Below are positions 2,197 to 51,200 of a stretch of 64,000 bases of DNA, piece by piece. Below the pieces are notes generated by a model, which did no database searches, was not told the DNA's origin, and worked only from the letters and a program-made list of their open reading frames with translations. Position numbers and translations under genes: made by a program. Within the stretch, counting starts at the first letter, position 1, and each line of letters begins with the position of its first letter. The stretch comes from Eledone cirrhosa (Eukaryota). The stretch spans positions 361,150,001-361,214,000 of the forward strand of contig OZ024743.1 of the NCBI GenBank assembly GCA_964016885.1. The letters run 5' to 3'.

Positions 2197-2232
<36 letters not shown>

Positions 2233-2301
2233 TATGAAGAGAGAAGAAACATTTAGATATAATTAGTAATAAAATGTATCATACCTAAACTGTTCCTAAA
2301 T

Positions 2302-2389
2302 TCCTCGACTACGTAGTTTCGTGGCATAAACAAAAACAATATATCAAAGATATAGAGTCCTTGCGAGGTCTGCCGACTTATCAAGAGGA
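2302..2389 (-). ncRNA. Type I hammerhead, U3:A8 variant core (array copy 1)
   Basis: Reverse complement of the motif at 4180-4267. Confidence 0.8.
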
Positions 2390-2889
2390 TACCTCATTTT
2401 ACTAGTCTCAAGAACGCGTCTACACGACGTGAGAAAGAATCCCAAAAGGCGGAGGGGGAGATAGTCACGCGATATAACGGTCGAGAAACAGAGCTAAGCC
2501 TCTTATAACCACGAAGAAAATACCACGGAGGCGGAGGGGGTATTCATATCGAGGCCGCAGAAGAGGTAGTGAAGAAGGCGAGAAGTATGAGTAATGGAAG
2601 CTTTCCAGTTGTCCCCACACTTCAAAGATTGCTCGACCAGAGGGAGTTAATATATTTAGAATCACACAGATACATGCGGACACACACATATATACATGAA
2701 TGCATCCGCACCCAACTGTGAGTTAAGGGTGCCAACTTCACCGATGTTGCTCAATGAATGACTGGGACAGACCAATTCAGTTTGAACCGGACTGAACCAG
2801 TATCAGAGTTAAAAATACATTATGAAGAGAGAAGAAACATTTAGATATAATTAGTAATAAAATGTATCATACCTAAACTGTTCCTAAAT

Positions 2890-2977
2890 TCCTCGACTAC
2901 GTAGTTTCGTGGCATAAACAAAAACAATATATCAAAGATATAGAGTCCTTGCGAGGTCTGCCGACTTATCAAGAGGA
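2890..2977 (-). ncRNA. Type I hammerhead, U3:A8 variant core (array copy 2)
   Basis: Identical to copy 1, offset by 588. Confidence 0.8.
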
Positions 2978-3477
2978 TACCTCATTTTACTAGTCTCAAG
3001 AACGCGTCTACACGACGTGAGAAAGAATCCCAAAAGGCGGAGGGGGAGATAGTCACGCGATATAACGGTCGAGAAACAGAGCTAAGCCTCTTATAACCAC
3101 GAAGAAAATACCACGGAGGCGGAGGGGGTATTCATATCGAGGCCGCAGAAGAGGTAGTGAAGAAGGCGAGAAGTATGAGTAATGGAAGCTTTCCAGTTGT
3201 CCCCACACTTCAAAGATTGCTCGACCAGAGGGAGTTAATATATTTAGAATCACACAGATACATGCGGACACACACATATATACATGAATGCATCCGCACC
3301 CAACTGTGAGTTAAGGGTGCCAACTTCACCGATGTTGCTCAATGAATGACTGGGACAGACCAATTCAGTTTGAACCGGACTGAACCAGTATCAGAGTTAA
3401 AAATACATTATGAAGAGAGAAGAAACATTTAGATATAATTAGTAATAAAATGTATCATACCTAAACTGTTCCTAAAT

Positions 3478-3565
3478 TCCTCGACTACGTAGTTTCGTGG
3501 CATAAACAAAAACAATATATCAAAGATATAGAGTCCTTGCGAGGTCTGCCGACTTATCAAGAGGA
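3478..3565 (-). ncRNA. Type I hammerhead, U3:A8 variant core (array copy 3)
   Basis: Identical to copy 1, offset by 1176. Confidence 0.8.
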
Positions 3566-4179
3566 TACCTCATTTTACTAGTCTCAAGAACGCGTCTAGA
3601 TAAGTCGGCAGACCTCGCAAGGACTCTATATCTTTGATATATTGTTTTTGTTTATGCCACGAAACTACGTAGTCGAGGAATTTAGGAACAGTTTAGGTAT
3701 GATACATTTTATTACTAATTATATCTAAATGTTTCTTCTCTCTTCATAATGTATCTTTAACTCTGATACTGGTTCAGTCCGGTTCAAACTGAATTGGTCT
3801 GTCCCAGTAATTCATTGAGCAACATCGGCGAAGTTGGCACCCTTAACTCACAGTTGGGTGCGGATGCATTCATGTATATATGTGTGTGTCCGCATGTATC
3901 TGTGTGATTCTAAATATATTAACTCCCTCTGGTCGAGCAATCTTTGAAGTGTGGGGACAACTGGAAAGCTTCCATTACTCATACTTCTCGCCTTCTTCAC
4001 TACCTCTTCTGCGGCCTCGATATGAATACCCCCTCCGCCTCCGTGGTATTTTCTTCGTGGTTATAAGAGGCTTAGCTCTGTTTCTCGACCGTTATATCGC
4101 GTGACTATCTCCCCCTCCGCCTTTTGGGATTCTTTCTCACGTCGTGTAGACGCGTTCTTGAGACTAGTAAAATGAGGTA

Positions 4180-4267
4180 TCCTCTTGATAAGTCGGCAGA
4201 CCTCGCAAGGACTCTATATCCTTGATATATTGTTTTTGTTTATGCCACGAAACTACGTAGTCGAGGA
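4180..4267 (+). ncRNA. Type I hammerhead, U3:A8 variant core with branched stem II
   Basis: uccuc UUGAUAA gucggca...ugccac GAAA cuacgua GUC gagga. Stem I is uccuc/gagga and stem III is the palindrome acuacguagu. Confidence 0.82.
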
Positions 4268-4501
4268 ATTTAGGAACAGTTTAGGTATGATACATTTTAT
4301 TACTAATTATATCTAAATGTTTCTTCTCTCTTCATAATGTATTTTTAACTCTGATACTGGTTCAGTCCGGTTCAAACTGAATTGGTCTGTCCCAGTCATT
4401 CATTGAGCAACATCGGTGAAGTTGGCACCCTTAACTCACAGTTGGGTGCGGATGCATTCATGTATATATGTGTGTGTCCGCATGTATCTGTGTGATTCTA
4501 A

Positions 4502-4543
<42 letters not shown>

Positions 4544-4796
4544 ATGTCTCTCATCTCTCACTCCATTAAACAACGTTTGGCTTGTGTCAGACACTGTAAC
4601 CCCGGGTGGAGAAGCAGTACATTTGGTAGGTTTCGAAACTGCCTAAGTCAATCTAAATTCCCGATGACATTGGAGTTATCTGTCTTAAATGTGTATTTTT
4701 ATTTTAAAACAAACAACAACTTTTAAAGGCTGCTCTTAAAATAATGCTTTTCAATACGGCGAAAGGTTCTATTTCTATTATACATATGTGGACTGT

Positions 4797-4877
4797 ACCC
4801 TTTGATAAGTTCAGCTAGATTCTCGCTGTACTAATACGGCTGGCTTAGTTCGGATCTAGCTGTCGAACCGGTCGGAG
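4797..4877 (+). ncRNA. Degenerate hammerhead, U3:A8 core, long stem II
   Basis: UUGAUAA at 4802, then cagcuagau...aucuagcug stem II, then GAAccgGUC. A related partial copy at 42270-42326 (minus) keeps GAAA. Stem I is poor. Confidence 0.5.
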
Positions 4878-4905
4878 ATCAGCCGTCGGTGTCTTGACTG
4901 TTTTC

Positions 4906-4946
<41 letters not shown>

Positions 4947-5154
4947 ACAGAGTGTATTATAGTGAAAACATAACAAGGACGATTGGTTACTCCTTCATTA
5001 CATTTATTGGTTGGTGACGCGTGTTTCGCCACTGATCAGCTCAAGGTTCTATCTGTATCGATCTGTATCGATCTTACACAGATTAAGCTTGACTACAAAG
5101 GGGGTGGACATCATACTAGTACCTAGGTAAGCTTTACAAGAATTTGACGGTAAA

Positions 5155-6045
5155 TTGTGGGAACGACAGAATAGACCAGATAGCTTCGACATTACTATGG
5201 GGTCGACCGACTCCGTGCAGGTTACCGATATAGTAGGCCTATACCTCCTAAATATATTAACAGATGAGATTAGGAGCATAATTAACTTAATAGTTAAAAG
5301 CGTTTCCTCTAGAGTGTCCACCCTCTCGGCAAATAGAACTATCTTCAACCAGCACGCGGAATACTATAACTCCGCACTTGAAAAGGCTGGTTACATTGAG
5401 AAGATATTTTACAATGACCCAACTATAACTGCAACGCCGCTAAACCTAATCAGTCCCTTACAAACGAACATAGACGAGGACACCACACCTAGAACAAATA
5501 ATAACCTAAGACCCTATTTAGCCGACAGGACAGGAAGCGTTACTCACAACTGCCAAAGAGATAAAGCTATACCGTCCAACCCCAATAAGGACTCTGAATA
5601 TCGCACGCGTTTCCATAGTGATAGACACCCGAGATATAACGCCAATAGAATACTAGGAACCCCTATGTCAAATATGCCTGACCAAAACGCACCCAAGCAA
5701 CCACCTAACCACAAAAACGACACTAAACACCGTAAAGCCCGAAGTAGACCTGTGACATGGTACAACGCCCCGTATTCTATACACGTTACCACCAATATAC
5801 CGGCAACCTTCTTCAGGGCTCTTGGAGAATCCTTCCCACACAAACATAAATACCACAAGCTCTTGAATAGATACACCGTAAAATTCTCTTTCTCCACAGC
5901 ACCAAATCAAGGCCACACAATATCACACACTAATAGGACAAAAATACGCAAACACATTATAGCCCCACATCAAACCACTACCACAACCCAGAACGAAACC
6001 ACACGCACAACACAACACAACAACCCACATGCCAGATCCACATAG
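5155..6045 (+). pseudogene. PLE reverse transcriptase remnant (catalytic YxDD region deleted)
   Basis: RT motif B-like MGS..S..V.DIVGLYLL joins directly to the thumb; compare the intact YRDDG region at 47729-47980. Confidence 0.8.
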
Positions 6046-6094
6046 CATTTGAATAACCAACAACGTGCCACCAAACCTGTAACTCCCAACTGAA

Positions 6095-6510
6095 ACTGCA
6101 AAAAGCTGGTAGAATGCCCACTAAACGGGGAGTGCCTCGTTAAAAACATTATTTACCGGTGCAATGTCACAGCTGGCAATAAAGAGTAATCCTATATATG
6201 TGAGACCTCCACTACGTTTAAGGAGCCCTGGTATAGCCACAGAAGCTCATTTAAACACAGGCTCAAACGATCCCATACTAGACTAGCCGATTTTATCTGG
6301 GATCTCAAGGACAAGAACATCGAATTCCAGATCATATGGTCAGTCAAAAGATGCGTGGCCCAACTTCCCAGTGACAGAAACCACTGCAGGTTATGCTTGG
6401 CCGAGGTGGCTGAGATAATTAAATTGAAATCTGCTATAACCTCTAGGTCTGACATAATTATAAATTGTAGACACACCAAGTTGAAAACCCTCTCTGCACA
6501 AATATTCGTT
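6095..6510 (+). pseudogene. PLE GIY-YIG endonuclease remnant
   Basis: CPLNGECLVKNIIYRCNVTAG..*SYICETSTTFKE...CRLCLAE...NCRH, with one in-frame stop. Confidence 0.8.
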
Positions 6511-6569
6511 TGAGGCCCGCACACTAACCATGACTCAACATAATGATAACCACCTTTGCCTTGCCACAC

Positions 6570-7345
6570 CGTCCCTCATCTCAGTGCATTTGTTATATAT
6601 ATCATGTAACCCTTTGTAAGTTCAGATTTTGTAAATATCATACCGCATCCATCACCCCCACCAACAGACACATCGCCATACATCCCTCATCTCAGTAACA
6701 TTGTGTTATATCTGTCCTCTCTATTAGGTTTTACCATGTAAACCATAGTAACATACGGTCCTGTAAATATAATGTCGAACGTATCACCCCATCGCCACCA
6801 ACACCACCACCATACACATCGCTATACGTCCACCATTCCTCATTCATAACCTTGTTTCCCCGTGTTCCCTCTATCATTTTTTAATCTGCAATCCTCCGTA
6901 AAATTCGATCCTGTAAATATTCTGACGCACACACCATCATCCCCCCTCCCCCACCAGATACATCTCCATACTTCAACACTCATTAAACATCATTAACATC
7001 ACCAACACATATCATCCCTCCCTCTCAGAACCATTGCGTTATATCTGTCCCCTGTGTCAGGTTTTACATTGTAAACCAGCGTAACATCCGATCATTGTAA
7101 ATATAATGTCAAACATATCACTCCATCGCCACCACCACTACCACCATACACATTGCTATACGTCCACCATCCCTCATTCACAACCTTGTTTCCCCGTGTT
7201 CTCTATGTCACTTTTTAACCTGTAATCCATCGTAAAATTCGATCCTGTATATATTTTGTCGCACACAACACCACCACAAGGCACATCTCCATACTTCAAC
7301 AATCATTAACATCATTAACATCAGCAACACATATCATCCCTCCCT
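6570..7345 (+). repeat. Degenerate tandem array in the PLE 3' region (about 330-bp duplication built from shorter related subunits)
   Basis: 6681-7020 is repeated at about 7013-7344. Subunits share ccctcat...tgtaaata...acatc.ccatac. Confidence 0.8.
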
Positions 7346-7839
7346 AAAGAACGCAAGGGTGTGTGTCTGTGTGTACATTTGTGTACACATACGTATATTT
7401 ATATGTACAACGCCATCTCCACTGGCTCCTCTCTCTCTCTCTATACATATATATATACACATGTGTATGTATACTACGTTTTTGTCAGACTAAAGTGTGT
7501 CTATGTATGTATCTCCTTATTGAATTTGACTCCACCAACACTTCCATCACACCACCATAAACACCATTACCACAAGCAACAAAACCACACCTAGACCACA
7601 CACAATAATCAGCCACAAATATATGCCAACAATCTACCGACAATACACAAACCCCACACCACCGCCCACTTCAGCCTGCGACCTTCACCACTATCTCATC
7701 ATCACATCCAACTTCACATGCTCTACAGGCAAAAAATCCCTATGAACTATCCCACCAATCAAAACAAACTTTATTGACTAACATATGAACTTCTGACTTT
7801 ATCATATAGCATGTATTCATTTTCTACGAGCATTTCAAG

Positions 7840-7926
7840 TGGTCCGTCGAGCCGCAGATTACTGAGTCGGGTAATATCGATACAGATCGAACCTTCAGCT
7901 GCTTAGTGGCGAAACGCGCGTCACCA
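7840..7926 (+). ncRNA. Hammerhead-like motif in PLE pLTR, variant core CCGUCGA
   Basis: uggu CCGUCGA gccgc...guggc GAAA cgcgc GUC acca. Confidence 0.6.
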
Positions 7927-7974
7927 ACCAATAAATGTAATGAAGGAGTAACCAATCGTCCTTGTTATCTTTTC

Positions 7975-8019
<45 letters not shown>

Positions 8020-9994: not shown

Positions 9995-10375
9995 TTATAT
10001 ACTACGTTTAAAGTTTTGGAAAGAATGTCGGAAGCGGTGTTGGCATGACGCAAACACTTCCGACTTTTTATTAAGGAGGTTAAGATTCGAAAATATTATA
10101 GTATGGGTCTCTAGTAGACATAGGTTACAGAATTTATTAGGTGGTTTATACGATGCAGCCCTACCTACTACTTCCCATTGAAGTGTACATGATTTATTCC
10201 TAGTTTTCAGATAGTGTATGTAGCTAGATAGTGAAGTGGAGTTGGCTAGATTGTGGTTTTTGAAAGAATGGAGAAGTGAGTTGTATCTCGTTTTGAAGCA
10301 GTTCGACGTAGAGCCTATATATGTTTCGGAAAAGTTGCTAGTTCTGACCGTGCATGAGTAAATGATTGCCAGATT
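9995..10375 (-). pseudogene. PLE GIY-YIG endonuclease fragment (open frame missed by the ORF track)
   Basis: Manual translation: AIIYSCTVRTSNFSETYIGSTSNCFKTRYNSLLHSFKN...STSLSSYIHYLK...WEVVGRAASYKPPNKFCNLCLLE...LLNKKSEVFASCQHR...*. Confidence 0.88.
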
Positions 10376-10379
10376 TGGC

Positions 10380-11170
10380 TGTATGGGAAAGTAGATGAAA
10401 GGACTATAAAAGCCAAAAATGAAAGGAAAAGAAGGGTAAGGAAGGTCGTTGGGACCACAGAGAAGGAGGGGAGAGGATAATGAGATCTAGGCCTAGCGCG
10501 TGGCACTATTGGGGCTGCGTCCCAGGGACAAAGCTACTAAGGTATTTCCTCAGATATTGTCCAGCAACAGCCGCTGCATCTGCCACCTCACCTCGCAGGA
10601 TCCTTCCTTAGGCGGCCTGCTAAAGTTCTGATGTTTTGAAGGAGCTTGGGAGTAGAGTATCCGAGTACGCCTGAGGCCTCGACAGCGACATGTGCGAAGA
10701 GGAAATTGCTAGAAAATCACCGGTGTTTGTTTATCTTCCGTTCCTCTGCATTGCGGGATGCAGTAAAGGGATTTGTGGCCGATGCGACTAAGTTGGCGGC
10801 AGAGAAAGTATTACAACAATTGGCGTCCCAGATGAAGGACCTACCTCCTTCGATTGGGAAGAGGTAATTCCATCGAGGCGCTTGCCGTTTCCGCGGTCGA
10901 GGCCTGCTGGCTCCAGTTGTGATGGGAAGCCAGCTGCATGCAGGCTGCTTCTCAATATGCCGTTGAAAGCGGCATGTCGAGGGAACAAGCCTGCGCTCTG
11001 GTAGCATGGCAGTAAGTGCAGGCCAACTTGTCTACGATAACCCTACAACGGCATTTATGTGGATCACACACGTGGAGGCCTAGGCTTTGGGCCATTCCGA
11101 TGTGAGTGCACTCGTCATCAAGAACGTTACGGTTTATGAAGTGGGCACCGATCTGCGTCATAAACTGCTT
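10380..11170 (-). mobile_element. 3' fragment of an RLE-bearing non-LTR retrotransposon (CRE-like)
   Basis: Frameshifted motifs CDPHKCRC, RHAAFNGIL, EPAGLDRGNGKRLDGIT, GRSFIWDANCCNTFSA, AEERK, VAVEASGVLG and QRL...GN. Confidence 0.8.
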
Positions 11171-23875: not shown

Positions 23876-26800
23876 GAGGATTTCAGCGTCTTCACAGACG
23901 ATTGCCGTCTCTTATTGATTCTTCGTTATCATACCATCTGCGTCCATGACTTCATAGACGACTTTGTAGGCCAGCGGTAGATCTGTATGGTTTAGGACAC
24001 ACGTGACAGAAGAGAGCTGTGCTTTCCAGAGGACCGAAGAAGTCATCCTGTGGTATACAATGTTCATGTACCACCATGTGTTCTTTTAGCTCAGAACTAG
24101 TTCTACACACTTTGTTGCATATCACGCACGTTGTTTCGCCATGTATTTATTGAGTGGTGTTGTGGGTGGTTATAATTTCATGTGACTGCAGGTGATTAAC
24201 ATAGCCAGCCTTTGAAAGGAGTACACGCTGACAGAAATTGGATGTCCAACTACTGGTGACTTCATCAAGACTGTGAGCACAACCCTTCTGGAACTGACGC
24301 TTCAGTTGTTTATGTTCTAGACGACATTCCTCAAATGTTTTGCAACTGCCATTTATGCGCTTTCTACACTCAGCCCTATTTAGAGCTATCGCCTCCCAGT
24401 TGTCTATATCAAATACCAGATTTTTGAGGTTGTTCTTTATGCTCTCCTTGTACCTCATTTTCTGTTTGTGTTGAGGCCTTTTTCCAAGGCGGAACTCGCC
24501 GTAAAACAGTTGCTTCGGGATCCTGCTTTTTTTTCATGCAGACGATATGTCTGTCCACCGCATTTGAGAAAATTTTACTTGGGACTCAATGCTTGGACAA
24601 TCTGTTTTGATAAGGAAATGGATATCAGAAGATCTGTCTTGTCACTTGATATTAAATATGCGCCTAAAAGATTCGGCGCAGTATAGAAGAGCATACAGAA
24701 CACACGATCTACACACATACACACCTTGGTATTGTTGGTAATGTTGCGATTTGCCCAACCTTCCTTTTCCAATTTTACGAAGGCGACAGAGGCGTTCTGG
24801 GTGTTCAGATGTATTTCAGCATCCAAGAAGCCATCATTTGAGTGTGCTAACCAAGTAGACAGATCTATCAACTATTCCCAACCTGGTTCCATCAACCATG
24901 GTATGGGTTTTAGAATATGGTTCTCCAGGAGCCGGAGTAAACATTACTTTGTTCTTTTTGAGATGAGAAACGGTCCATAATGTGCCGCATGTCTACTTCT
25001 GTGTGTGCTAGGAAGTCAGCGTCGTCGGCGTAAAGAAGGTCTCTGATTAAAGCTTAACAAGTGTTTGTCTTGGCATTAAACTTTAAGAATGTGTCTGGCA
25101 CAATCATCGAAAGTATGTACGAGCAAGGCAGCACAGAGGAAAAGCGTAGGAGCAGGAATATCACTTTTTACTCTGTTGTCAATTGGTATTTCCCCAGATA
25201 GTTAACCATTGAAGGTAACCCGAGCTTTCATATTTCTGAAAATGTGATTTAGCATACACACAAACTTGGGTGGACATCCTACTTTTCCAAATATTATCCA
25301 GAATGCATCTTTGATTACTGTGTCAAAAGCCTTCGTTAGGTTGAGAAAGACTCGATATAGAGAGACACACTGCTCAACGCATTTTTCTTGTATTTGTCTT
25401 ACAGAGAAAATCATGTCAACTGTTATCCTTCCTCCCCTAAAACCCCTCTGTGTTTCTGGGATAGCTGTAGGATAGATATCCTTCTCCAGTCTGTTGAGCA
25501 AACGCCTTGCGAGAACTTTGCCAACAGCTTCCAACAAAGTGATGCGACGGTAGTTTCCATATATCAACTTTTCACATTTGTATGTGTATAATGATAACAG
25601 AATGCCGTTGATCCAGTCTTGCGGAACCGGGGCCCAATTCCAGCAATCAGTGATGAAGTTGTTTATTGCTTCTCTTACATTATCACTACCGACTTTCAGC
25701 AGTTCGACTGGGATACCATCAGCAGAGGGAAGTCGATCCATACGGTGGAATGTTTCACATTGAGGAAGGCCCTCGATTACTCCGAAATTAACTGCTGATG
25801 GATTGTCAAAGAGCTCAGTAAAATGTTCGTCCGTACAGGATTTGTTATGGCTTTTGATCCCTGAGGAGTTATTGAAGATGTTGGTGGGCCGAAGGAAGAC
25901 TTCGTGTATCAATGGGTAAAATTACTTCGAATCTTTAGTGTTAAAAGCCTGGTGGATATCCGAAGAGATATTACTCCGCCATTCACTTTGCAACCTGCGC
26001 AGTTCGCGTTGCAGTATTGCTTTGTGATCTTTGTAGGCTTTCCTGACAGCTGGTTGTGCTACGGGATTTTGATTCAGGAGCTTTTCATAGAGTGTGCTTG
26101 ATATTAGAATTGTTGTCATCGAACAGGTCATGGTGTTTCTTGGTTCTGAAGCCAAGTACCACAGCTTCCACTGAGTAAACTTGATCTCTAAAGTTTTCCC
26201 AGGTACCATCAAAATCAAGAGCATCAAATCTTTAAGTTAGGGTTGTACGCCCATCTGCTTGCCTCCGTGTTATGACATCAATACGTTTCAGTGCTTTCAC
26301 TCAGACATACGATTCATTTTGCGGATATTCATCTTGAAATTTCCTCGCACTAATTTGTTGTTAGTGCCACATTCTGCATTACGTAACACAGACACTGTTC
26401 CCACGTCCCTTAGATCTCGTTACAAATGATAATTAAATCAATCATATGTCCATGCTTGGATCTTGCATGATACCAGGCAGTTTTATATTTGAGCTTCTAA
26501 CGGAAAAGTGTGTTGTAGATGGTTAAGTTGTGGTCTATGCAGAGTTCAAGCAACCTCAGGCCACTGGTGTTTTACCAATATCAAATAGACCAAGAGCCTC
26601 TCACGTCTCCTGATCATACGAGCATTAAAATCACCGAGAAGTAATAATTTATCTTCAGCAGGTGTGCATGCAATGACAGCATGATGAGACTCATAGAAAG
26701 AATCAAGGACTACCTTACTGGCCAGTAGGTTTGGTGCATAAGTAGGTAAAGGTGTTACATAACGGCCATGTCTCAGAGGAATACGAAGCTTCGTATTGTG

Positions 26801-27410
26801 ATCGGTTACTCCAGTAGGACATTCTATACGATCAAGCAAGGATGTTCTAATTGCGATGCCAACACCGCCATCTCTCCGTTCATTTATGGGTTTACCTACC
26901 CCGAAAAGGGAGCAGCATGATGATACTTCTGTTAATTGATCTTCTCCCACCAAACGTGTTCAGATAAAGTTGCTATGTCTATGTTCAATCTTCTGAGTTC
27001 TTTTGTCACAAGTGCAGTTCCATATCCCGGATGTCCAGACGAGTTTCTGTCCAGGAGTGTCCTAATGTTCCAAAAACAAATGTTGAGTTTGACTCGATCT
27101 TTCGCGTAATATTTGCATTTTGCTTTACTCTTATACCTGATAGAGTAAGGCAAAGTAAGCTCAGGGCGCATGTGTGTAAACTTGTGACTGGTCAGGTCTG
27201 CCCATGTTACCATTCATCTATCACTGAACTATTTCAAAAATGGAATAGACGAAGAAAGATGTAAGAGACATCTGCACATCACTATATTACAGTGGTAAAC
27301 GCGTGTACAGCACGAGTACCACCCTATGAGTATCCGCAACTAGAGTCCAGTGACATGCCGATAAGATGACCGGGAGCTGCTCCAACCGCAGGTTTGAAAA
27401 GGCTTCCTTC
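23876..27410 (-). mobile_element. Near full-length degenerate RTE/BovB-like LINE (APE, RT, three C-terminal C2H2-like fingers)
   Basis: WNIRTLLD, ELRRLNIDIATLSE, GVGIAIR, LLGDFNAR, NYRRITLL, QRGFRGGR, LTKAFD and LLYADDA (about 25020-25040). Confidence 0.92.
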
Positions 27411-27723
27411 TCACTTAATGACACGCATACATACGAACGCTACCCAACAAACTCTCATGCATACAATCAAACACACACACCACTCACTTACACACACAAA
27501 AACAGACACAGACACACACATACACACGCAATCACACACACACTCACTCATATATATATATATATATAAGTAAGATGTATGGTAGGTCGTATGTGAATCG
27601 CGATGATCACGTCTGACTTACCAAATATGTGACGGTAGCTAGTTAAGCTCTATGCGTATACGCAGAGCAGAAATATTAGTGAAAAAGAACAAAGGAACTA
27701 TTATGACATTATAACAAGTTTAT

Positions 27724-27769
27724 TGCCGACAGCCGTTTCGTCCGACCCATGGTGGGACTTATCAAGGCA
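27724..27769 (-). ncRNA. Minimal type I hammerhead, U3:A8 core
   Basis: Reverse complement of 28630-28676 with a 1-nt indel in loop II. Confidence 0.8.
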
Positions 27770-28629
27770 TATAACATGTGATTGCAAGATCATTGTTTAC
27801 ATCAACGTATCACTCAAGGTAGCAGTTTGAAATTGTTGTATACATCAGCAACTCCGCTTGTATAGTTGGGGTCAATATTCTAAGGGGGGCTCTTTTATAT
27901 TAGTTGTCGGGGTCAGGGATTGAAGTTTAAAAATTAGACAAAAATATATAATTTACGCATCAACATTAAACTAAAAGACTTGGGGTCCCGTAGAAGCACC
28001 TTAGAAAATCCCTCAATGAGTGCATAAAGCATACAGGCTCCAATAAACCTAGAAGAAAATTAAGAGGCCAATAAGACTAGAAGAAAATTAAGAGGCTAAT
28101 AAAATAAGAAAATAAAAATATAAAGTTTCCCTAAAAAATATATAAAGTTCCTATGAAATTTCTTCTAGAGAAAAATAATTTTTTCCGAAAGAAAAAAACC
28201 TTCTTCCCCGAGATCACGTTTACAAAATTCAGAAAACTGAATTGAAAACTAGGTTGAAAGAAACTAATCAATTAGAGGTTAATTCAGAGAGCCTTCCATA
28301 AATCTCTCAGAAAAGGCCCCTTTAATATTTCCAATAGGAACTTCTTCCGAGAGACCCTTCGAAGAATTAAAATTTTAGAGAGCCTTTAAGGATAAATATA
28401 AAAACGAATTGAGGAAAATTATACATTAAAAGTTAAAAATTAAAATTTACGGTATTTGGGATATCCGAGGAAGTTTCAAAGGGCTGCTTCAACAGATACA
28501 ACTTAGGCATAATAGATACAATAATCTAAGCAACTATACAAGCGGAGTTGCTGATGTATACAACAATTTCAAACTGCTGCCTTGAGTGATACGTTAATGT
28601 AAACAATGATCTTGCAATCACATGTTATA

Positions 28630-28676
28630 TGCCTTGATAAGTCCCACCATGGGGTCGGACGAAACGGCTGTCGGCA
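28630..28676 (+). ncRNA. Minimal type I hammerhead, U3:A8 core
   Basis: ugcc UUGAUAA gucc...ggac GAAA cggcu GUC ggca. Confidence 0.82.
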
Positions 28677-28709
28677 ATAAACTTTTTCACTATATATATA
28701 TATATATAT

Positions 28710-42413: not shown

Positions 42414-44436
42414 TTAAATCTCTACTACGGTAACCCTTCTACTTTTGTTTTGTTTTCATCTTTGTCTCTCTCAACTTTCACTTTCACCTGTTTTTCCTAT
42501 CTATATTTCACTTCCTACCTCGAGATTTCCCTTTGCATTGTTGTGGCTTTCTTAAATACGTATTTTTACACATTTCACAATGCTTCAAGCAAACTTTAAC
42601 ACCCTCTTATATATATATATATATCTTAACCTGTCGCAAGCGCTGGGACCGCACTTAGTCATGGTCAAAAGACCGCCATCGCGGTACACAACCACCGCCC
42701 ACATTAGTTAATTCTTCCTTGATAGAGAAAAGAAAGAAAAGGCCGATAAGAACTGTAACCTCCACCGAATTGCTGGCGCCCATACTAACGTCCAATGGGG
42801 TACTATTAGATGTTTTTATCCAAATAGAGTCTTTGAAATTAATCACCGACTTACGGGTATTGAGGATGTCATCAACTTCGAAATCCTTAACCACCGTGAG
42901 CGTTTTAGCGAAATTGATAGCTCTAAGAAGAAGCGATGGAGGAGTAGTAATTATTGACGTCGAATTGGATAAAACGGCAAAGTTCTTTGCTGCATATGCC
43001 ATTGAACCAAACAATTACCGCGAAAGAATTATTCAAGAGTGCAAGAAGCGCCAAGCTTCTAATTTCAGGTATAATTCTATCTAAAATCCTTTTACTAAGT
43101 CTACCTAAATCAGACTTCGTATGGTTAATTAGCCGAATAGAAGGGTTGTTCGCGAATTTGGGTTTGTAATCCTTCAGGGTAAAGTGGGGAGAAATTGGGT
43201 CCAGATATTCAGTCCGGTCCTGATGTTGAGTTCAGAAGTGATTTTAAAGCATCATCGTTAATGTTATTAATGACACTTCGATTGGTTATACGGTAATCCT
43301 TAGTTACAGCATTATATAGCAGTTGATGGTAATTACTGCCTGCCCTCCACTTGATATAGATTACCAGTTTTGTCGGAGTGGACGTGCCTGGCATTAGAAT
43401 CCTTAATAGAACGAATTCTATTCTTCAGTCGGGGGTACGTGGTTTTGTATTTGCGTGTATTTGTTCTCATCGTCCACATAATGACGCATTATCTTCGCTT
43501 TTTTCCGTTCATTGCCAGGTAACGTCTTCACGAACCAAAATATCGTCTTCCTGTTTTCCCCCGGCTGCAACGTTTTTCGAAATATTTACTTCTACGTTCA
43601 CATCACATATTGATTTTTTATATTGAGAAGATCTCGTTAAGTGTGAAAGCAGCGACTTTTGCTTAAACCTTAATCTGTTATTTTAATAAATATTTGCCAT
43701 AGGGTTCTTATACATTTGATATATATTTATCATTATCGAGCCCTCTTTGGATTTTAGTCTTCACATTTATTATTTTTACTATTTGGCTCCTTAGGTTGAG
43801 CACTCTATTGACTTATATGCATCATGCAGAAAAAAAACCCAGAATATTTCTACAAATAATACACCCGTACCTAGCAGAAAGACATATTTAAAACTTCTTA
43901 TACAAAAATCGGATTCGCTCCTTAAAAGGGTGCATTGGCGTGCCTTTTATTTCGATAACCAGGAAAAAGGGGACAATAAACAGGATAAATTTGGGTTTAA
44001 AACTTATAATAACCCTCCAAATAACCCAGCGTTGCTATCCTTCGAAAACGATGTCTTGGAACTCATACGGAGTATCAAATTTCGTAACAGGAGTAATTCC
44101 TTCCAACAGGACCTGAAGAATATAATTCGTTCTATTAAGGATTCTAATGCCATGCAAGTCCACTCCGACAAAACTGGTAATCTATATCAAGTGAAGCGCA
44201 GCATTTACCATCAACTGCTACATAATGCTGTAATTAAGGATAACCGGAAAACTAATCGGAGTGTCATTAATGACATCAACGATGCTGGGTTTAAAATCAC
44301 TTCTGAACTCAACATCCAGGACCGGACTGAATCTCTGGACCCTATTTCTCCCCACTTTACCCTGAAGGATCACAAACCCAATTTCGCGAACAACCCGTCT
44401 ATTCGGCTAATTAACCCTACGAAGTTTGATTTAGGT

Positions 44437-47308
44437 CACCTTGATCACCTTGACCGACCAGTCTGTCGGGCGTGGTCGTTTCCGCTCGCGCGGGTACCAC
44501 TCGGCAGCTGCGTGTGTTCACCGATTATCAGTGAACCCGGCGTCATGTCCAGCCCATCTGAACTAGCATTGATCTCCCCATGGCTCTTTGAGCATTTACC
44601 AGCCTCTCTCTTCTCTCTTCGTTGTAGCCCAATTTCACTGCCATCTAACATTGTAGGTAAAACTGTGCTATTGAAGAGGTTGGCGAGGGTGGTCTTGTCC
44701 AACCTCCCCTTATGCTGTTGAACACCTTCCATCCGGCCCTTACTCTCCACGAGATCTCCCTCTCAATGTCTCGGCGCATGTTCACTTCTTATCCTAGGTA
44801 GATGTATTCCTCCACCTCCTCTATTTAATCACCGCCAACCACCATTCGACCTGTTGGTACGTTGTCGGACCGCATGAACTTCGTTTTCATGCGGTTAATC
44901 ATGAGGCCTACTGCAGAGCTTTTGGTGTCGAGCTCCGTCAGCATGGTCTGAAGCTGATCCGTGGTTTCAGCGATGAGTACGATGACATCGCCTTGCCAGT
45001 TAATGCCTCTGATGATCTCCTCGAGATACGCGGTGAAAAGCTTTGGAGAGATCGTAACTCCTTGCTTCACTCCCTTCTCGACCGGCACTCGTACGGGTGA
45101 TGACAGCAGAGCTATGTCGGTAGTGCATCCGGAATTCGGCTCCTTGAGCAGTTGAACGTATTGCGCCTCTACTCCTCGCGTCTGCAGCGAGTTCAGCACT
45201 GCGTTGATTTCGACGCTGTCGAAGGCCTTCTCGTAGTCTACGAACGCGACGCGAAGAGGTATCCTGTACTCTTTCGCTCGCTCAAGCAGTTATGTCAGAG
45301 TAAATATGAAGTCCATCGTGCTGTAGTTCTTCCGGAAGTCGGCTTGCTATCTCGGTTGCTGTTCGTCCAGATGACGTGATAACCTGTTCATTATTATCTT
45401 CGTGAACAGCTTGTACACGTGAGATAGCAGGCATAAGGGTCAGTAGTTCTTCAGATTTTCTCTTTCGCCCTTCTTTTATAGCAGGATGGTATTCGACTCT
45501 TTCCACTGCAAGGTTATTCTTCCCTCCTCCAGATACTGTGTGAATCACTCGGCGAGGATTTTCCAGAGCTGCTCCCCGCCTGACTTCAACACGTCCGATG
45601 TTATACCGTCTTTCCCTGCCGCCTTTCCGCTTTTCATCAAGCCGACGGCTCTTTTGACCTCACTAACAAGGATGGGTGGCATATTTTCTTCCTGTTGGAG
45701 TGACGGCACGGCTGCACATTCCCGGCAGACTTGAAGAGCTTGGTCTAGAAGCCTTCGCAAACCTTTTCCACCTCACCCTTGTCGCTGACCGGTACTCCAG
45801 CTGTGTTCTTCAGAGTCGTCACCTTCGGTCTGTACATTGCCATGTCCCTCTCGCATTTCTTGAGGCTCTTCTATTCTTCTGCGGCCTTCAGGAGCTTCTC
45901 CATCCGGTATGCCTAGAAGTCTCTCTTCAGTTGTTGACGTATTACTCTGCTGAGAAGGGAATATTTGAGGTGATCTTCAGGTGTCCGCTTCATATTCTTC
46001 CCCTTCTCAACCAACTTCATAGTTTCTCCCGAGACTCTTCTCTTCCGCTCCCTCGGGCACACACCCTTAGCCTTCATCAAGCACTCATTCAATTTCCTTA
46101 TCAGGCAGTCGTAGTCAGCGTCTATGCCGTCTCCTTGACGCCAGTTTTCCTGCATGATGGCTTCCTGAAGCTGCGCCTCTTTGAAGACCCGGACGCGTTC
46201 TCCCTTCGACGCCAAATGCAGCGCCTTCTTCTCCCGGCTATGATCAGTGCCAGTGTTGATTGGCGTTATGACTGAGACGTCCTGCAGTATGCGTCGCTTG
46301 TTGACCAGGATGTAGTCGATCTCGTTTCGGTGCTCAGAATTTGGCGATACCCAGGTCCATCTCTTCTCCTCCTTCTTCCTGAATAGGCTGTTTCCGATGT
46401 AGAGCCGTCTCGCCTGCGCCATGATGACCAGACGCCCTCCTCTCTCATTTCGCTCTCCTAGAACGAGTCTTCCGACATACTCTTCCCATTGCCGTCCCTG
46501 TCCGACTTTTGTGTTGAATTCTCCCATCACGACGGTTTGTCTAGCTGGCAATAGAATTATTTGTCTAGCTGGCGATAGAATTATTCCACTTCATCGTCGA
46601 CCCTGGCACTTGTGGGAGCGTAGGTCCGCACGATCTTGAAGGTGGCCTTCCCTGAGAGGTTCACGTTCAGTACACCAATCCGTGACGATATGAACTGGCA
46701 AGAAGCGACCTTCGAAGCCCTTTCCTTGCTTACGATGAACCCTATACCTCCGACCGATCTGGCACCCTCTGCTTTCCAAAGTCTTACGGCGCATCCATCT
46801 TGCCATCGTGAACTCGCTTCCTTCTTCTGGAGGGTCTCGCACAGCCCTAACATGTTGCACCTGATCTTCTTCTTCTCCTCCATTAGGTGCTTCAGTCCTT
46901 GCCCCCTGCCAAAGACCTGCAGTTCTAAGAACATATGGCAAGGTTAGTCCTGTTCCATGGCGGGCTTCGGGAACTTGTGATTCTTAGCAGCCTCTTGCTG
47001 CTCGGGTTGCACTCCGTCGTCGTGGAGTGGCCCGATTGATGTGCAGGGTACTTAGGCCCTTTTCTTCGTGCTGTGTTACCCATAAGATGACGCTATCCCA
47101 CTGGCTGCGCGGGTAGGCCGCTACCTCTTCAGTTTAGCTAGCTTTTGAACACTAGAAGATGATGAATCATATCTAGGACCAATAGTCTGATACCTGTGTA
47201 GCATGGTAAAACCTGCCAGGACATTGAGTCCCGCTATCATAGCTATCAGACAGTCAGGGTCACCGCTGCGCCACTTTGAGGCACTGAAGTAGGATTTTTT
47301 GCAGAGGC
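44437..47308 (-). mobile_element. GC-rich RTE-1-like LINE inserted into the PLE ORF
   Basis: TSD tgatttaggt at 44427-44436 and 47309-47318; 3' tail of tcaaggtg repeats; motifs LGLCET, YAPTS, GEFNTKVG, NEIDYIL, TDH, GKAAGKDGI and GVKQG..ISPKLF. Confidence 0.93.
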
Positions 47309-48195
47309 TGATTTAGGTAGACTTAGTAAAAGGATTTTAGATAGAATTATACCTGAAATTAGAAGCGTGTCCCTTCTTCAAAGTGAAATAATTCTTTCGC
47401 GGTGATCGATTGGTTCAATGGCATATGCAGCAAGGAATATTGCCGTTTTATCCAATTCGACATCAATAACTACTACTCCTCCATCACTTTACCACTTCTT
47501 CTTAGAGCTATCAATTTTGCTAAAACGCTCACGGTGGTTAAGGATTTCGACGTTGATGTCATCCTCAATGCCTGTAAGTCCGTGATAAATTTCGACGACT
47601 CTATTTGGATAAAAAAAAATCTAATAGTACCCCATTGGACGTGAGTATGGACGCCAGCGCTATTCGGTGGGGGTTACATATCTTATTGGCCTTTTCCTTC
47701 TTTTTTCTATCAAGGAAGATTCCCTAATGTGGGCGGTGGTTTGTACCGCGATGACGGTCCTTTGACCAAGACTAAGTTCCGTCCCCGCACTTGCGACAGG
47801 TTTAGAAAAGAACTCACAGCTTTCTTTAAAGGCTTCAATCTCTCTATACATGTTGAGGCCAACCTTTCGGTCGTAAACTACCTCGACGTTACCCTCAATT
47901 TGTCTTATGGATTGCACTACCCTTATAGGAAGCCGAATGACACACTTAACTCCGAAGCCGAGAATCATTCGGTTTCCTAAATAGAATATTAATCTACGAC
48001 TCCATTTATACCATATACGTGGTTTTGTCATTGCGTGTATTTGTTCTCTCGCTCCACATAACGATGTATTACCTTCGCTTTTTTCCGTTCATTGCCAGGG
48101 AACGTCTTCACGAACCAAAGTATCGTCTTCCTGTTTTCCTTCGGTTGCAACGTTTTTCGAAATATTTACTTCTGCGCTCACAGATTGATTTTTTT

Positions 48196-48246
48196 AGTTT
48201 CAGAAGATCCCGTTAAGGGTGAAAGCAGCGATTCTTTGCTCAAACT
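48196..48246 (+). ncRNA. Hammerhead-like motif in PLE pLTR, core CAGAAGA (decayed sister copy near 43620-43670)
   Basis: aguuu CAGAAGA uccc guuaa gggu GAAA gca...ug CUC aaacu. Confidence 0.65.
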
Positions 48247-51200
48247 TTAATCTGTTATTTTCATATATATATATATATATATGAAAGAAATCCTCAACTT
48301 TTGAATGAGAACGATGCCTTGGCGGAAGAAATATATATGCAGTCGATGTGGATTGAGGATTTTCGAATAAATGCTGTTAAATTGTAGAAAAATGGGGGAA
48401 GTGGATTTTGAACCAGTATAATTGGTAAATCTGTTTGCCGAAATAAATAAATTTGTGAAAGAATAAATTTTGATGATTAGCTTTTTAACTGAATTTAAGG
48501 TTGTACCCGAGAATTGAAATGGACGAGATATTTTCTCAGTTACTGTGAAATATGAGCTAGAAATGAAGGAAAAATTATTTAATGCCAAATATATAATACC
48601 ATAATCATTAGTAATTCAATTCAATGAATTGGGATTAGTGTGAGTATTATAAGAGTGGCTTTTTAGTGTTTCACTGTGAATATTGTGAGAGATACGATGG
48701 TTCTTTGTGTAGTATGTTCACAAGCTCCTAATTATGAATTTTATGATGTCATTCAATACTAAAATTAATTATAGTCAACTGCGTATCTCTTTGAGTTAAT
48801 GTGCTGAATCCATCTACAATTTGATTCCTTCCTGTATTCAAATTATTCAGCATTTCTAAACAGATTCATGACAAACTTTAAAATGCTACATTGTGATTTC
48901 CTTTTGAGTTTAATACAAATATTAAAAGTATTTTGTTCATAATATTCCGTATTTCTTACTTCAGCCTTTACACATTTGAATATCACACACATAGCAATGT
49001 AATTAATTTTGGTTTCCTTTTCTTATGTGATCTGATTCACAAAGGCTGAGGTAATATATTCATTGCACAGGGATATATAATAGTCAATCATACATCTAAG
49101 GCTGTACTATTGTAGAAATAAGTCACCTTTCCTGTATTTTACTAAGATGGAGGGGTCTTTACTAGGCTTATGCAATTTAGAGATCATTTCTATAGAAATC
49201 AAATACTGTAGAATTGGATAAGCCATTATCATGAATGGAAAATACTTCTCTTTTAAGTCAGTAAATGAACATGCAGCTTGATTGCTTTCACTTGGTTTAC
49301 AAAGCAATATCCTGTATAAATTAATCGTTATCTAACCCGATTTAGCATACCTAAAACAGATTTCAAATAACCTTTTTTGTAATAATAATCTTGATACAGT
49401 AACTAGATGAGTGCATAGACACATTTGCATCATACTATAATAATCTTATTCATTTGAACTGAAAGAATTAATATAATGATTAATGTGAAGAATTTTCCCC
49501 AATGCAATAATCCTCATTAATTGAAGTCACTGCAATAATATATTCACGTTTATACGTATTTCATTTATTACATCCAGTACTCCTTATATTTTTTTATTAA
49601 TTTCTTTTTTATAGGTTTTTAATTTTTATTATTTCCCAAGTCATTTATGTTACATTATTGGCAAAAGACAAACTACTAAAACGAACATGTTACAGAATTA
49701 TAGAATTACTTTCTTAGAAATATTTCATTTATTTTCTAAATTCTTTTCTTCTATACCTGTAATATTGATTAATTTTTCGAAGTTATATTACTTCTAAATT
49801 TTTCTAATAATTTTCGTGTATTTCAGTATTCAATTTCTGCCACTAAACGTATTCGGAACTCATGATTTGGTGCAGTTTTCCCTAATAAATAGATGTGTAG
49901 TAACTAACAATATGTTTTTGCTGTTGTTAGTGTTGTTGTTACACTATAATTACCTGACCTACAATTCAATTTAATGAATTTTGGAGAACAACTCCAACCA
50001 CAGCTAATTGAAATCATTCGATTTTTCTTTAATTTGTCGTTTCATACGAAAATTTAAAAATCGAAATTCATAATAATAGAAGCATTTCATCGAAATGAAT
50101 AGAGGAAAACGGGTTTTTTAAAGAAACACTCTTAATACCTTTCGTGAAATTTTATTTTGAAATCAATGTAAACAAATTATTATTCACTGAAGTAGTTTAT
50201 AATAATAATTCGAATTTTCTTAAATTTAATTATGAACGCTAGTTGTTAATCAACTGCATACTAGTCTATAAATTCAAGCACCACTTGAAAAAAATTACAA
50301 TATCAACTCTTATTAAACGTTCCAATACAAAACTGCTAACTCTTGCTTACATCCAGAAATGTATGCAATGTAAAGAGAATTATATTGAGAAAATCATGAA
50401 TGTAAATTTTGAAAGGCAGGAATTTATCTTAAAAAACTGTTTGAACATGAATAAAATTATGTTTTCTGTTAATTAAACAACATGACTGAGGTTACACAGT
50501 TTATACAATTTAATGTTATTTTTACTGACAGCCTACATTGATATAGAGTTGTTTATTAAAGCTTTCTATAGATTTAAAGAAACGAGTTCAACAAATTACG
50601 TTCAACCTTAAACTAATGAGAAAATTAACTTTACTAATTTCAGATATATGGTGAGTAGAATTGTACAATATGGACATTTTGAGAAATTAGATAGAAATGG
50701 AAATAATGAAATAAATCTTGGCAAATATATTCAATAATTCGAAAAGAAATAAAAAAATATTAATAACATTGAGTAATGCTACCTAGCATTTCTTTCTAAC
50801 ATTTAAGTGTAATATATTTAGCTTACTGCATCCGTTAAAACACGTTATTCTTTTACTTATTCAAATCCTACTAGAAGACCATAACCGTATCAAATACAAG
50901 TGAAGCAGTACTGACATAGCTGTGGTAGAAATTAAGTAGCAATAGTTAAATGTGGCTATCGTTTGGTTTTCATTCATACCTGCTGTTATTTGTGTTCTAT
51001 TCTTTTCATGGACGAGAAACAAACTACTAGCTCTCTGTGTTCTGAGTCGAAACATACGAGAAGGTAATGTTGCTTCTCATTAATAATTGGTCAAATAAAA
51101 TATGTCCCGTTTATGTACAGTTGCCGACTCAATTGATAATACACCCCTTTAAAATGCATAGCCATATGCTATTCTAATACTCGATATTAATATTATAGCG

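Follow-up and report, generated by a model that had tools for sequence, protein, structure and literature searches.

Metazoan non-LTR retrozymes and their circular RNAs have been described in PMC7229834, and an origin from Penelope-like elements (PLEs) has been put forward for retrozymes in bioRxiv 10.64898/2026.07.22.740005, where, of nine Xenopus retrozyme dimers tried in vitro, eight failed to cleave. As portrayed in the parts of these two sources on which we draw, they are tandem non-coding units that each contain a type I hammerhead, have a GC content below 50%, reach thousands of copies with few units per array, fold stably as monomers and share their genomes with PLEs. The element analysed here, known from DNA alone, agrees with them in all of these respects, and its 588-bp unit, longer than the 170-400 nt given in PMC7229834, lies within the 51-972 bp range of the bioRxiv study. 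It departs from them in its U3:A8 core, in a stem II of 57 nt against their 4 bp, in a predicted Watson-Crick pseudoknot where they have the canonical loop contact, and in insertions in (TA)n that have two inverted arms and two fixed 3' ends.

The hammerheads of PLEs (PMC4209133), which are slow in vitro, share with the present motif a type I fold, a stem I of 4-5 bp, a longer-than-usual helix II, a palindromic helix III for which action as dimers has been proposed, and a U3-A8 variant (about 1,300 motifs in the PLEs of Schistosoma mansoni). In the portions of that source available to us, however, helix II measures 7-8 bp with no pseudoknot described and helix III is minimal, whereas here stem II is long and carries a predicted pseudoknot, stem III is a 10-nt palindrome and no ORF is attached. 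A Watson-Crick helix between stems I and II is known from about 40% of hammerheads, in all three types, and raises their rates (PMC3088659); the same source, whose length analysis excluded repetitive type I motifs, also reports natural U3-A8 covariation and draws an Aedes repeat hammerhead with a 10-bp palindromic dimer stem III. All three features are seen or predicted here, but the pseudoknot partner in that account is a terminal loop or tail, while in our motif it is an internal loop, beyond which stem II continues as a hairpin of 13-15 bp, in combination with a dimer-type stem III. As to the insertions, EN+ PLEs (PMC8557442) resemble the present element in their 5' truncation, partial tandems, inverted 5'-truncated copy, tail at one end and bias towards (TA)n; unlike them, it lacks an RT or GIY-YIG ORF, and its two ends differ by 165 bp, against a 30-40-bp tail in the description of those elements. 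Permuted hammerheads (PMC10085705, as far as that source was available) were also considered and do not apply to the motif. The U3:A8 core, the palindromic stem III, the pseudoknots and the retrozymes have each already been published separately; their combination, including the leader-to-internal-loop build, was not found in the literature searched, subscription papers and supplements lying outside its scope.

In the window (the whole 64,000-nt stretch of Eledone cirrhosa DNA that was analysed), a type I hammerhead with a U3:A8 core, a long stem II and a palindromic stem III can be read from the letters of the forward strand at 4180-4267. Stem I pairs UCCUC (4180-4184) with GAGGA (4263-4267), core nucleotides 3-9 are UUGAUAA (4185-4191, with U3 at 4185 and A8 at 4190), and G12-A13-A14 (GAA) occupy 4249-4251. 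The GUC triplet lies at 4260-4262, C17 being 4262, and cleavage is predicted between 4262 and 4263, on the strength of the fold and of insertion arms that begin at +1 (in the unit numbering used throughout, +1 = 4263). The base of stem II (4192-4198/4243-4248) contains one bulged C and encloses an insert of 44 nt (4199-4242). The letters thus bear out the original prediction in its identification of a hammerhead with a UUGAUAA, U3:A8 core and in a 44-nt stem II insert closed by gu-c-ggca/ugccac.

To examine this fold we used an alignment (A1) of 60 distinct U3:A8 copies, comprising every one extracted; older copies had been sought since the youngest are about 98% alike. Across the 60, the whole structure is 90.8% paired, compared with 34-52% when the partners are slid, and double-sided changes are present in stem I (three of its five pairs), in the base of stem II and in stem III. 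Covariation over genomic copies, which had been named as a check on the motif, is therefore found in stems I and III. The core columns are invariant partly since the search patterns demanded them, and we do not count that invariance as evidence; position 7 is free, being U, A, C or G among 85 U3:A8 sequences. With a Watson-Crick 3-8 pair, GAA and GUC in its cores, the motif is by its fold a genuine type I hammerhead, for which self-cleavage is predicted. Standard models had been expected to overlook it, and the Rfam search proposed alongside that expectation agrees: no Rfam family reached its gathering score within the 64-kb window, and no hammerhead family was present among the 29 matches at E<=10 between 2100 and 8100. 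The miRNA-type matches in this set fall on AT/GT repeats under threshold and were rejected. Single-strand folding energies are unremarkable for the motif (z -1.45), and the core of the RNAalifold consensus, which pairs with stems III and I, was set aside as a nested-folding artefact of the palindrome, only the long helix being in agreement.

The motif is abundant. Its 18-nt 3' half has 7,696 exact matches in the 3.0-Gb genome against none for the reversed pattern, and a 17-mer matches five times in the window, where 0.09 matches are expected and five ribozyme copies are present. Searching with a pattern for older subfamilies yielded 1,013 matches against 1 in the control; among the first 100 of them listed, the 3-8 pair is U3:A8 in 97 and C3:A8 in three, with no C3:G8 or U3:G8. 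By contrast, a C3:G8 pattern with a 25-65-nt gap and no pseudoknot term recovered 2,365 long-stem-II motifs against 17 in the control, and these sister families are arranged in tandem units of about 483-485 bp. This distribution supports the view that U3:A8 is a compensatory alternative at the 3-8 pair, the older relatives being mainly U3:A8 and the sister families of the same build C3:G8. The original prediction also called the variant known but rare; it is indeed known, but hardly rare, given the roughly 1,300 Schistosoma motifs noted above and the several unrelated U3:A8 families present in this genome.

A number of related motifs were seen alongside. One separate and abundant U3:A8 family (L040-L069) combines a canonical 4-bp stem II and a 6-nt loop with a stem I that is long and interrupted; the 3-8 swap is thus present in this genome in short as well as long builds. 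The closest view of this swap inside one lineage is offered by L162 and L140/L141, which are related and have a common leader-loop pair, one being C3:G8 with GUA and the other U3:A8 with GUC. In the window, a second U3:A8-type hammerhead-like motif at 4780-4890 (+), with relatives L044 and L060, has a different long stem II and is damaged at GAAA; there, the leader and a strand from the 3' side of the stem II insert seem to be complementary. In a C3:G8 sister family (L160, L161; G000:C1:152230232-152234272), six consecutive 485-bp units alternate A-B-A-B-A-B at one base, as a two-unit circular template would give.

Stem III (4252-4261) is a perfect 10-nt palindrome, predicted to form a 10-bp duplex between two ribozymes. 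Its calculated energy is +1.5 kcal/mol as a hairpin and -12.9 kcal/mol as a two-copy duplex. The inner two pairs of the palindrome, which are impossible within a single strand, show double-sided changes in 17 and 13 of the 60 copies, respectively, although these represent few independent events; in addition, the sister families bear different 10-nt palindromes among the matches listed for a pattern without a palindrome filter. The proposal that a self-complementary stem III lets the ribozyme cleave as a dimer is strengthened by this covariation, and it is likely, on these sequence comparisons, that the ribozyme cuts as a pair through the palindrome. The alternative that fares best is cleavage as a monomer, in which a stem III of three pairs and a 4-nt loop would be stabilised by the pseudoknot described below and dimers would be optional. 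Pseudoknots give high rates in other hammerheads (PMC3088659), invertebrate retrozymes with a short helix III cleave as single motifs according to the part of PMC7229834 that we draw on, and many insertions here carry a single copy. We nevertheless regard the monomer as unlikely, given the instability of the stem III hairpin, the covariation of innermost pairs that no single strand can form and the maintenance of different 10-nt palindromes in the sister families.

The ribozyme sits in a tandem array with a period of 588 bp. One unit, taken from cut site to cut site (3675-4262, +), corresponds to a predicted monomer RNA of 588 nt, which has a GC content below 50% and folds stably (z = -4.6 against 40 shuffles); no ORF of at least 120 aa was found in the array (2227-4507). 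The array consists of two arms. The forward arm (3595-4507, +, 913 bp) ends at +245 in (TA)n, and its first ribozyme copy (3597-3679) is without the leader, the 5' strand of stem I and U3. The inverted arm (2227-3598, -, 1,372 bp) ends at +80, likewise in (TA)n, overlaps the forward arm by 4 nt (3595-3598) and contains three consecutive complete ribozyme copies with leader, identified by sequence match (3478-3572, 2890-2984 and 2302-2396, all on the minus strand), the arrangement expected of a tandem-unit retrozyme and the tandem context that had been proposed for the motif. The unit is present in four contig runs, one of which joins 4507 back to 3920; a DNA tandem would give this join too, and we attach no weight to it.

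This organization is not peculiar to the window. In a survey of 40 loci, the first listed of the 7,696 matches, together with the window, 65 arms reached at least 85% identity, and 60 of them end in (TA)n at either +80 (30 arms) or +245 to +247 (30 arms). Nineteen of the 22 adjacent inverted junctions, one of the nineteen being a duplicate, join one +80 arm to one +245 arm; the three exceptions involve an internally deleted arm, a short arm ending elsewhere and an older element. An overlap of 1-11 nt between the two arms is present in 15 of these 19 junctions. Two fixed ends are likewise found in older subfamilies and in two sister families. The insertion flanks consist of (TA)n, in which a target-site duplication cannot be read. 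Divergence amounts to 0.31% between units of one arm, 0.36% between the two arms of an insertion and 2.08% between different loci; since the arms are about as close to each other as the units within one of them, a single template would serve both, and the sequences point to one molecule, or one source, behind both arms. These same values do not support the idea of two different RNAs brought together by the palindrome, each templating one arm.

If the ribozyme cleaves in vivo, the starts of the arms may carry a trace of it. With a start at +1 accepted only where three mismatching bases precede +1, 19 arms begin exactly at +1 and four at +17; all 19 are genuine junctions, of which 16 are left once three duplicates of a single event are removed, and L338 has both of its arms starting at +1. 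The direct comparison of +1 with +17 is not significant alone (p = 0.086), while the +1 starts exceed an estimated uniform expectation of 4.7-6.8 (p = 0.00003-0.002). Among 36 distinct (TA)n-joined starts, counted by hand in the first 100 of 500 matches listed, 29 fall in +1..+17 and seven in -17..-1 (p = 0.00016). The enrichment of arm starts at or just 3' of the cut site is therefore suggestive of a trace of cleavage, and only suggestive, because stalling of the reverse transcriptase at the fold could give the same step of 29 to seven.

This ambiguity feeds a second alternative, in which the fold is a binding or packaging signal for a Penelope RT, or a stall site, with negligible cleavage in vivo and arrays copied from uncut tandem transcripts. 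Besides a structured RNA that could halt the RT just 3' of the fold, it draws on the inactivity of most tested retrozyme dimers (bioRxiv 10.64898/2026.07.22.740005, in the part consulted) and on the finding that the cut site is passed in most arms, which run on for up to about five units; for this, either a ligated circle or an uncut tandem transcript is needed. On the other side stand the retention in all families of the core, the GUC/GUA triplet and the 3-8 covariation, partly imposed by the search patterns, the 16 independent arms at exactly +1 where about 5-7 are expected, and the start of both arms at +1 in L338. Taken together, these leave a purely non-catalytic role quite unlikely, and we retain the reading of the fold as a self-cleaving ribozyme.

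Stem II (4192-4248) is best described as unbranched: a basal helix, an internal loop, a long helix (4206-4212/4232-4238) and a distal hairpin (4215-4220/4224-4229). The long helix is paired in 86.3% of cells in the 60 copies of A1, where four of 15 pairs change on both sides and eight on one side, two central pairs being open in 37-40 copies, and it is recovered by the RNAalifold consensus. The original prediction instead closed stem II in a multiloop of two small hairpins. The distal one is real, as the tip of the long hairpin; the other, ccu-cgca-agg, is paired in 57.8% of cells, with two of its three pairs unpaired in 37 and 39 of the 60 related copies, and has a probability of 0.000 in the stem II ensemble, where the rival long helix exceeds 0.99. 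For the window copy, the unbranched fold is favoured by 7.4 kcal/mol (-13.6 against -6.2 kcal/mol). The letters do permit the multiloop in the youngest subfamily, and C-G is kept at both variable pairs in 21 of the 60 copies, but the A-to-G changes that allow the small hairpin (21 and 23 copies) turn A-U into G-U wobbles in the long helix, and the hairpin would block the loop strand of the pseudoknot, with which it shares bases. The broken pairs in relatives and the energy difference refute the branch, leaving the multiloop very improbable; comparative and modelled data alike make one long hairpin the likely form of stem II.

The internal loop of this hairpin appears to be engaged from outside the motif as first delimited. 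A leader strand 5' of stem I, UGAGGU (4173-4178, +), is complementary to the internal-loop strand ACCUCG (4200-4205, +), and the two are paired in 92.5% of cells over the 60 distinct copies, the leader having been absent from the search patterns. A pattern without the loop motif gave 75 matches (control 34), among them more distant subfamilies in which the loop strand is retained. Both strands change together over four families, three of which have ordinary C3:G8 cores, the leader/loop pairs being UGAGGU/ACCUCR, UGAAAAGA/UCUUUUCA, GGAAAAU/RUUUUCC and CGAGU/ACUCG, and the register is nearly constant between families. After filtering on stems I and III, 129 distinct motifs remained, which we assigned to these families (85, 24, 14 and 6 motifs) using neither strand. 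In all four, leaders score highest with the loops of their own family (diagonal 12.8, 13.4, 14.2 and 15.7; off-diagonal 5.1-11.5), and a permutation over 30 clusters gave p = 0.0001. At least five contiguous pairs are possible in 64/85, 22/24, 12/14 and 6/6 motifs, and shuffled leaders reach five pairs in 8%, 67%, 52% and 20% of cases, in the same family order; families B and C (67% and 52%), whose A/U-rich strands often pair even when shuffled, would by themselves lend the pseudoknot weak support. Within the U3:A8 lineage the pseudoknot is mostly invariant (three double changes at one pair and one at another), so the covariation rests on the four families, whose common descent is presumed. 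From these comparisons, a 6-bp pseudoknot likely ties the leader to the internal loop of stem II. A 4-bp hairpin between the leader and the 5' strand of stem I (4176-4184) is also possible in the youngest subfamily, where it would compete with stem I and the pseudoknot; this hairpin, a possible off state after cleavage, is missing from older subfamilies.

The suggestion that the hammerhead belongs to a Penelope-type context is supported by the form of the insertions. The array carries no RT or GIY-YIG ORF of the kind an autonomous PLE would have, and shows the marks of a non-autonomous one: a fixed 3' end, 5' truncation, an inverted arm and a microsatellite target. A satellite origin, in which unequal crossing-over or duplication at the DNA level spread the array and the ribozyme is a decayed passenger, would account for the near-identical tandem units and for the one whole insertion duplicated in L327. 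It can hardly be credited, since the arrays are short and dispersed, have inverted arms, vary at the 5' end while sharing two fixed 3' ends, and target (TA)n, all of which are marks of PLE retrotransposition in the account of PMC8557442.

A candidate partner was sought among the PLEs of the same genome. An intact family of 713 aa, with RT plus GIY-YIG at the C-terminus, shows the same two-end inverted pattern in (TA)n; from its motifs we take it to be Neptune-like. A second PLE family encodes 600-770 aa. No Pfam family was assigned to four PLE proteins. No homology links the 588-bp unit to the 3' end of the intact 713-aa PLE, and comparison of the unit with 75 loci of the two families gave no significant match except one nested copy; nor was such a ribozyme seen near the 3' ends of either family. 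Two loci in which an ORF neighbours a ribozyme (L156 and L203) were rejected as partners, being separate insertions that meet at (TA)n.

Several PLE remnants lie in the window itself. A decayed element at 4963-7975 retains the C-terminal part of an RT and a GIY-YIG at 5131-6510, with three stops, and is bounded by inverted ends of 100 bp bearing a degenerate hammerhead whose stem II is long. Further fragments were seen at 9995-10486 (-), 42600-44500 and 47160-48270; that at 43-44 kb is from a young family in which no canonical hammerhead was seen; its members include many intact 713-aa ORFs, the 3' UTR measures 1 kb, and the two fixed 3' ends are separated by about 100-120 bp. Short U3:A8 hammerheads at 27705-27790 (-) and 28610-28695 (+) form an inverted pair that ends an insertion of about 1 kb in (TA)n, decayed between them. 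Fragments with endonuclease and RT pieces at 44825-46983 and 24147-26959 are, judging by their motifs, presumably two LINE-type elements.

Overall, we consider it probable that the locus holds a type I U3:A8 hammerhead in a 588-bp non-coding retrozyme, likely moved by a PLE, with a predicted pseudoknot and unbranched stem II, and that cutting takes place after GUC in a dimer. Of this account, what has been observed comprises the elements of the fold, the number of copies, their covariation, the fixed 3' ends, the inverted insertions with two arms and the identity between arms; the steps that would connect these are as follows. In transcripts that span the array, neighbouring ribozymes would fold into a dimer, with the pseudoknot, instead of the customary non-canonical loop contact, keeping stems I and II parallel. 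Through two cuts, a 588-nt monomer would be freed and probably ligated to a circle. A Penelope-type endonuclease would then nick (TA)n, and from each of the two DNA ends reverse transcription would be primed on a single template, at two fixed AU-rich sites (+80 and +245). Both cDNAs would end at variable positions and be joined by microhomology, yielding tandem arms in inverted orientation.

A broader reading, which we hold tentatively, is that these motifs form a distinct architectural class of animal retrozyme hammerhead, uniting the leader-to-internal-loop pseudoknot, an extended stem II and an obligate dimer through a 10-bp palindrome, with at least four families and more than 11,000 copies in one genome, whose insertions record both cleavage at GUC in vivo and a mechanism with two primers and one template. 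If true, such a mechanism would explain the inverted arms and the one-sided tail of PLEs, and a large class of animal hammerheads would be escaping the Rfam models. The correction of the fold supplies four natural strand pairs for direct mutational tests. The strict pairing of +80 and +245 arms from one template would, in turn, provide thousands of natural records of how PLEs produce inverted and tailed insertions.
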